Shown here: piece by piece, positions 6,671-6,991 of the stretch
Layout of the letters: each line of letters begins with the position of its first letter
Position numbering within the stretch: the stretch's first letter is position 1
Source: Elusimicrobiota bacterium
GTDB taxonomy: Bacteria > Elusimicrobiota > Elusimicrobia > F11
Direction of reading: 5' to 3'
Assembly: GCA_046153645.1 (NCBI GenBank)
Contig: JBJXGI010000021.1
Span: 1 to 34,822 of the forward strand
DNA: 34,822 nt
The notes under the pieces: generated by a model
Seen by the model: the letters and a program-made list of their open reading frames with translations, nothing else
Told to the model about the DNA's origin: nothing
Databases searched by the model: none
Program-made: the position numbers and the translations under genes

Positions 6671-6991
6671 TTATTTTGGAGTAATCTTGATGGCAAGAAC
6701 AGGGCAAACGCTTTCGCATGCCATACAGAAAATGCAAGATTCTTCTTTTGCAGGGGCCGCTTTCTTTTCAGAAGCTGGATGACCTGGGGTATCTCTCCAC
6801 TCAAAAACATTTTCCGGGCAAGCATCTAAGCAAGCGCCATCGGCAACGCAGATGTCAAAATCAACAGCCACCCAAGTGCCATGAATGCCAAGTTTAGCGG
6901 GAGCTTGCACTGGGCCCCAAATCTGATAACCTTCTGGTGCTTTTCCTACAACTTGTCTATTAGTTTGAAAATCTGGATCAATTGCGGCCAT
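6671..6991 (-). CDS. Dicluster (probably 7Fe) ferredoxin of the archaeal zinc-ferredoxin family
   Basis: CVADGAC..ACP and CIFCMAC..VCP cluster motifs; N-terminal extension IDPDF...LGIHGT and [12 protein letters not shown] segment as in Sulfolobus ferredoxins; AGGAGG RBS. Confidence 0.9.

Follow-up and report, generated by a model that had tools for sequence, protein, structure and literature searches.

An archaeal-type ferredoxin, predicted to carry seven Fe, was probably gained from archaea by the ancestor of five Elusimicrobia families, where it likely took over from the bacterial ferredoxin FdxA as general low-potential electron carrier; we put the probability of this reading at roughly 0.6. 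The gene lies in the window, that is, the whole 34,822-nucleotide stretch that was analysed (positions 1-34,822 of contig JBJXGI010000021.1, assembly GCA_046153645.1), from an Elusimicrobiota bacterium (GTDB lineage Elusimicrobia; F11). The evidence comes from sequence and structure comparison, gene distribution, phylogeny and gene context, and the predicted function is read from genes throughout.

Sequence and fold of the ferredoxin

Archaeal zinc ferredoxins (Zfx) are by far the closest relatives of the window ferredoxin in the PDB, with 1xer (E 6e-46) and 2vkr (E 1e-44) well ahead of the next sequence match (E 8e-17). Its AlphaFold model (pLDDT 97, from a 43-row alignment) superposes on both structures with TM 0.96, rmsd 0.5 Å and 62-63% identity, and the structure ranked third reaches only E 1e-3. 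These matches bear out the likeness to Sulfolobales zinc ferredoxins claimed in a sequence-only reading of the same DNA, and the CxxDxxC first motif and residue numbering given there agree with sequence and alignment. Both cluster motifs are intact, with residue numbers offset by +3 from 1xer (Table 1). The protein has an N-terminal extension on a dicluster core, the Zfx fold, Asp in place of the second Cys in motif I and a four-Cys motif II. Judged by its residues, it is a Zfx-fold homologue and not a zinc-containing member of the group. Its best family match is NCBIfam NF041165, where it scores 92.7 bits against a curated cut-off of 280; this is a Thermoplasmales model of 144 positions, built for the longer Thermoplasmales form. 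The protein is not of the FixX family and its gene is not beside fixC; the host FixX is a separate gene (C79:2791-3087).

Table 1. Positions of the ferredoxin gene, its motifs, signals and ETF-related neighbours in the window
Feature	Position	Strand	Basis
Archaeal-type (Zfx-fold) dicluster ferredoxin, 106 aa, degenerate zinc site	6671..6991	-	sequence, PDB matches, model
N-terminal extension, residues 1-40	6872..6991	-	alignment to 1xer; ligands from the available text of PMC2946596
H37, equivalent of His34, kept	6881-6883	-	alignment
First cluster motif C48-x2-D51-x2-C54-x3-C58-P59, predicted [3Fe-4S] site as in 1xer/2vkr	6815..6850	-	sequence; available text of PMC2946596
A79, where zinc ligand Asp76 stands in 1xer	6755..6757	-	alignment
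Second cluster motif C86-x2-C89-x2-C92-x3-C96-P97, predicted [4Fe-4S] site	6701..6736	-	sequence; available text of PMC2946596
Ribosome-binding site AGGAGGA	7000..7006	-	sequence
Promoter-like site TTTACA-16-TATTGT with TG, between etfA and ferredoxin gene	7034..7061	-	sequence; similar sites in relatives
Intrinsic-terminator-like hairpin, 15 pairs, T run, closing ferredoxin gene	6610..6646	-	sequence
etfA, nearest to bifurcating ETFs, without the N-terminal 2[4Fe-4S] domain of most relatives	7071..8111	-	homology, locus reading
etfB, nearest to bifurcating ETFs	8126..8950	-	homology
Acyl-CoA dehydrogenase (Bcd-like), only one found in genome	9084..10313	-	homology

Distribution and absence of FdxA

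The ferredoxin gene is confined to a small part of the phylum. A profile search of 393 Elusimicrobia genomes found it in 37 of the 40 genomes of families f1, f4, f5, f12 and f37 and in none of the 353 genomes of twelve other families; by family it occurs in the host and 8/11 others of f1 (the host's family), 15/15 of f4, 11/11 of f5 and the single genomes of f12 and f37. In a phylum sample it was found in 23 of 401 genomes, all within the same five families. The three f1 genomes without it also lack the neighbouring smc, and one of them (G318) lacks etfA as well, so these misses look like assembly gaps. Gene loss in G318, which has an E2 match, was therefore dropped as an explanation. The sequence-only reading had counted a broad, vertically inherited bacterial clade as evidence against its proposal; the gene is inherited vertically, but in a narrow group of five families.

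FdxA is absent from the carrier families. With a single query, FdxA-type matches occur in 0/40 of their genomes versus 101/126 in nine other, mostly respiring families (20 of these 101 matches were read as sequences); f2, f3 and f14 also gave 0/227, and no genome has both ferredoxins. An FdxA profile at a looser threshold again found none in the 40 carrier-family genomes and was positive in five of six control genomes from respiring families. This mutual exclusion of FdxA and Zfx should be counted as one or two events in evolution rather than as 40 independent cases. Family f10 has the gene order JAB-fdxA-sir-ubiE-nuoA (sir, sulfite reductase) beside its complex I operon; the FdxA encoded there has 1BC6 as best PDB match (E 2e-28) and scores below the cut-off of FdxA models. 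JAB and sir are adjacent without fdxA in the host and three f4 genomes, and two more f4 loci are too short to show the slot. Alternatively, the empty slot could mean that fdxA was inserted in f10 rather than lost in the carrier families. Families f6-f8 (L326-L335) have another FdxA subtype, ~104 aa long, which carries a C-terminal tail rich in Pro and is 40-43% identical to the f10 form.

Probable archaeal origin

Outside the Elusimicrobiota, the named homologues listed are archaeal. Among the best 80 of 594 GTDB relatives (22 of 64 parts of GTDB scanned), eight are Elusimicrobiota and the other 72 archaeal, from Nitrososphaeria, Bathyarchaeia, Halobacteria, Thermoplasmata, Sulfolobales, Nanoarchaeota and others, which supports the inter-domain transfer proposed by the sequence-only reading. 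In the ESM Atlas, the top seven rows are 60-100% archaeal. For 80 metagenome loci, the nearest labelled sequence is an Elusimicrobiota copy in 15 and archaeal in 65; no clear other bacterial carrier was seen in ten metagenome loci read gene by gene and judged without formal taxonomy, and a taxon was named for one of 20 protein clusters looked up. Searches for mobile carriers gave seven haloarchaeal records among plasmids and three weak, partial matches among viral contigs. The tree is unrooted, and the direction from archaea to bacteria is inferred because archaeal breadth contrasts with one small bacterial clade. The gene was likely gained by the ancestor of the five families, to judge from these sequence comparisons. 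In RpoB trees a branch sets the carrier families apart, with support of 89 (FastTree, 60 rows) or 35 (IQ-TREE quick, 54 rows after 18 were left out; the mis-extracted row of G218 was ignored), and the host's family groups with Ca. Obscuribacterium magneticum (G401) with support of 100. The IQ-TREE analysis does not separate the branching order of f10, the neighbouring group, f5+f37 and f1+f4+f12.

That RpoB result leaves room for two separate archaeal transfers, one to f5/f37 and one to f1/f4/f12, each displacing FdxA, which we regard as rather unlikely. The ferredoxin tree itself (54 rows, 102 columns) has two Elusimicrobiota groups among archaeal groups, with f5 split from the rest, and a single Elusimicrobiota clade appears in 0/200 bootstrap trees. 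However, constraining the sequences to one clade lowers the log-likelihood by only 1.35 units (p-AU 0.47) and is not rejected by a tree that rests on only 102 columns, and one gain is simpler given the 0/353 matches in other genomes. A single gain in the five-family ancestor is thus preferred.

Co-transfer of the host's 2-oxoacid:ferredoxin oxidoreductases (OFORs) from archaea was considered and rejected. The named relatives of the C29 alpha subunit are from Elusimicrobiota, Omnitrophota and Anaerolineales, plus one Nitrososphaerales record; the best structure is 6N2N, and close copies occur in f9 and f10, both without the ferredoxin. Because the host OFORs are of bacterial type, only the ferredoxin appears to have crossed. 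On one metagenome contig (L259:5899-8951), where the ferredoxin is nearest to archaeal copies, its gene directly precedes a two-subunit OFOR that is 43% and 64% identical to the host C29 enzyme.

Gene context and electron-transfer partners

The ferredoxin gene keeps varied company. It ends the series nuoABCD-HIJKLMN-polyprenyl synthase-(tat), without nuoE, nuoF or nuoG, in all five f4 loci fetched. In G385 it comes after nuoLMN-polyprenyl synthase, in 4/6 f5 loci read sdh genes adjoin it or are close by, and at one locus (L058) it is divergent from an OFOR pair. In the host, six f1 relatives and G401 it follows acd-etfB-etfA. Upstream of the gene, a sigma-70-like site occurs in 17/28 loci versus 0.7 expected and TGnTAnnnT in 12/28 versus 2.6 expected, both counts coming from kin loci that are not independent. 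Hairpin-like repeats with T runs follow the stop codon in eight loci, read by eye. Region-wide promoter and terminator counts in the window are at chance level. From these sequence features, the gene reads as a separately expressed housekeeping carrier. In G371 (L030:8065-8379) its place, between tatC and rpsB, is that of the other f4 genomes, but it is on the opposite strand.

Recruitment as a partner of the electron-transfer flavoprotein (ETF), as the sequence-only reading had it, applies at most to the host's own family, since in other families it is found behind nuo, sdh or OFOR genes. Within that family, the ferredoxin could serve ETF alone and stand in, in trans, for the N-terminal 2[4Fe-4S] domain that EtfA has lost, although we consider this improbable. 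In the host and in all six family-level relatives read (five f1 and G401), EtfA is short and the ferredoxin gene comes directly after it; across 30 loci read, the EtfA domain is kept in 7/9 f4, 6/6 f5 and f12. For EtfA and EtfB alike, the top five PDB hits are bifurcating ETFs (6FAH, 7KOE, 4KPU, 5OL2, 7QH2), at E 1e-50 to 1e-81, and canonical ETFs reach no better than 1e-25 for EtfB and 1e-37 for EtfA; a conserved Arg is not diagnostic of bifurcating ETFs according to the available text of PMC8958531. Against a dedicated partner, short EtfA occurs without an adjacent ferredoxin gene in G385 and G371 (f4), where that gene is elsewhere, and in G027 (f2) and G130 (f9), whose families have no such ferredoxin; conversely, in G230 EtfA is long and the ferredoxin gene lies 1.2 kb away. 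The same zinc-less ferredoxin clade sits behind nuo-tatC in f4, TGnTAnnnT precedes the ferredoxin gene in 6/7 f1 loci, and a carrier would in any case be required for OFORs and complex I.

Host metabolism is consistent with such a general carrier. The host has two OFORs of two subunits each (C34, C29), of which one is encoded next to sucCD, as well as an IOR-like enzyme; its single E1 pair lies among sugar-biosynthesis genes, and its genome has no NuoF, E2 or flavodoxin_1 match. Among 23 carrier-family genomes, E2 matches occur in two (one a 63-aa frame; 0/5 in further genomes), NuoF-family proteins in 12, and four have no COX1-family match, so the respiratory picture across these families is not uniform. 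The host complex I genes run nuoABCD and then directly nuoH, and there are two COX1 and a FixC-FixX pair, with fixCX on another contig than the ETF genes. No NDH-2 was recognised in the host by homology from three of its own flavoproteins, which is a weak test. In G000:C92 (L124:2419-3192), nuoK and nuoL are separated by a gene of 258 aa that matches PilZ weakly (E 6e-4, short of the cut-off).

In the proposed path, two-subunit OFORs would reduce the [3Fe-4S] cluster of the ferredoxin, as in Sulfolobus; the S. tokodaii OFOR reduces cluster I of its Zfx ferredoxin, according to the available text of PMC2946596. The bifurcating-type EtfAB would also reduce ferredoxin from NADH, its second electron passing to FixC-FixX and quinone or to the acyl-CoA dehydrogenase. 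Reduced ferredoxin would feed the NuoEFG-less complex I, then quinone and oxygen, and would also serve ferredoxin-dependent enzymes such as sulfite reductase. The gene content thus points to the ferredoxin as the likely general electron carrier of the host. A second dicluster-like host protein (84 aa, C31:2601-2852), in which the first motif ends in Ser-Pro and which has a similar counterpart in G317, could share this role. A bolder picture, in which the clade swapped its core ferredoxin for a Sulfolobus-type one and runs an archaeal-style aerobic chain entered only through OFORs and a bifurcating ETF, with ferredoxin as hub and NuoEFG-less complex I as exit, is offered tentatively, at somewhat less than even odds.

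Loss of zinc ligands

The available text of PMC2946596 gives His16, His19, His34 and Asp76 as the zinc ligands of Zfx proteins. One of the four is kept in the window ferredoxin: aligned to 1xer, His16 corresponds to A18/P19, His19 to Y22, His34 to H37 and Asp76 to A79. The alignment confirms the ligand pattern noticed in the sequence-only reading, namely that H37 alone is left and that Ala stands for Asp. Among 27 distinct Elusimicrobiota ferredoxin sequences, nine are ligand-complete, and the other 18 retain the His34 equivalent but none of His16, His19 and Asp76; His37 or its equivalent is therefore retained in 27/27, and Tyr replaces His19 in 17 of the 18 degenerate copies. The window ferredoxin belongs to a zinc-less clade (support 97/90) inside an f1/f4/f12 group (95/85) in which the first branch is ligand-complete. 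Since a third of the bacterial copies (9/27) are ligand-complete and the window protein nests among them, loss inside bacteria is most likely, and because degenerate copies occur in f5 and G385 too, it was likely recurrent. Zinc loss, as far as sequences tell, thus likely came after transfer, inside bacteria and repeatedly. The earlier proposal of transfer of, or conversion to, a zinc-free variant survives in its archaeal origin and, most likely, in conversion rather than import of a ready-made zinc-free gene. Both forms are present in G401: L046 is ligand-complete, and L132, which follows etfA, is zinc-less.

Some archaeal homologues have also lost zinc ligands. Of 73 archaeal rows, 46 are ligand-complete, 20 Nitrososphaeraceae-type rows lack all four ligands, six were partly parsed and one has no call. 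In a cluster named Heimdallarchaeota/Kariarchaeaceae (P0063 with P0361 and P0362; P0079, P0104, P0087), His19 is changed to Tyr and Asp76 to Ala as in the window protein. This cluster was considered as the source of a ready-made zinc-free gene and rejected, because it groups apart (99/95); the shared swaps likely reflect convergent zinc-site loss, as read from the sequences. In the 20 Nitrososphaeraceae rows (L069, L071, L072 and others) all four ligands are replaced, with Trp for His34 and Phe for Asp76, and many homologues are 165-185 aa with a longer N-terminal part. Three further sequences (P0039, P0040, P0064) have Cys at the His16 position and keep the other three ligands.

The former zinc site of the window protein would be packed by Tyr22 and Ala79 with nearby Trp25 and Trp40, as suggested by these residues and by analogy with zinc-lacking Sulfolobales isoforms, in which a hydrophobic core is reported to replace the zinc site (PMC2946596, available text). 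Continued binding of zinc or another metal, by His37 and substitute ligands such as Glu20, is quite unlikely, as is a [4Fe-4S] cluster at the Asp51 site. His37 is indeed kept in all 27 copies, yet the other three ligands are gone together in all 18 degenerate copies, with Tyr for His19 in nearly all of them. The equivalent Asp ligates a [4Fe-4S] cluster in the ferredoxin of P. furiosus, but all native Zfx proteins studied are 7Fe, both according to the available text of PMC2946596.

Host genome

The host is a bacterium: its closest named homologues are from Elusimicrobiota, the ferredoxin gene has smc, rnc and fab genes as neighbours, and the order acd-etfB-etfA-fd-smc is shared with relatives. 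The genome is 99.7% complete. Misassembly or misbinning of an archaeal fragment into this genome, which has the likeness to archaea and nothing beyond in its favour, is practically refuted by the same gene order in six other f1 genomes, by presence of the gene across five families and by its GC3 of 0.32, inside the 0.24-0.35 range of seven neighbours. Elsewhere in the window are type IV pilus genes (23367-34822) and a fatty-acid synthesis cluster with rnc (10341-16381), both named by eye from translations.

Significance and comparison with known systems

The protein kind and its zinc-lacking isoforms are already known from archaea (Sulfolobales). New here is a Zfx-type ferredoxin fixed in a bacterial clade with FdxA absent from the whole group. 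Zfx ferredoxins are described as limited to archaea, and their reoxidation route as unknown, in the available text of PMC2946596; no report of a bacterial Zfx-type ferredoxin was listed in a literature search with most subscription journals outside its coverage. Replacement of a central electron carrier from archaea to bacteria would show that ferredoxin hubs are interchangeable. NuoEFG-less complex I occurs in several Elusimicrobia lineages, and ferredoxin has been hypothesised as its donor (bioRxiv 10.1101/765248, available text); if our reading is true, it names that donor and supplies a concrete candidate, the gene of which in f4 ends the operon for a complex I without the NADH module. Three ligands were lost together, apparently more than once, and the change of His19 to Tyr recurs in an Asgard-associated cluster; this offers natural variants for probing the zinc site, and natural zinc-bound/zinc-free pairs, both in one genome in G401, could be used to test the purpose of zinc if the predicted states are true.

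The window protein shares its fold, N-terminal extension, CxxDxxC motif, Cys spacing and His34 equivalent with the zinc 7Fe ferredoxins of S. tokodaii (1XER) and A. ambivalens (2VKR), and differs in its bacterial host, in the replacement of His16, His19 and Asp76 and in that no zinc is predicted. Zinc-lacking isoforms of Sulfolobus metallicus and Acidianus ambivalens (FdB), likened here by description and not by sequence, are likewise cases of natural zinc-site loss, and the window protein has the FdB-type combination of a Zfx fold with replaced zinc ligands. In contrast to FdB, the loss here arose inside a bacterial clade, apparently more than once; it is argued to be separate because the window protein nests among ligand-complete bacterial copies. 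Ferredoxins of the FdxA/FdI type (1BC6, 1H98, 2V2K) have the same predicted cluster content and likely do the same job in related families, but are of a different lineage, with a C-x7-C motif and no N-terminal extension. Among known systems, the host ETF most resembles bifurcating EtfABCX (Thermotoga maritima, Pyrobaculum aerophilum) and Bcd-EtfAB, and the host encodes both FixC-FixX and an acyl-CoA dehydrogenase. It differs from those systems in that its fixCX is separated from the ETF genes and its predicted acceptor is an archaeal-type ferredoxin, with bifurcation itself predicted from sequence.
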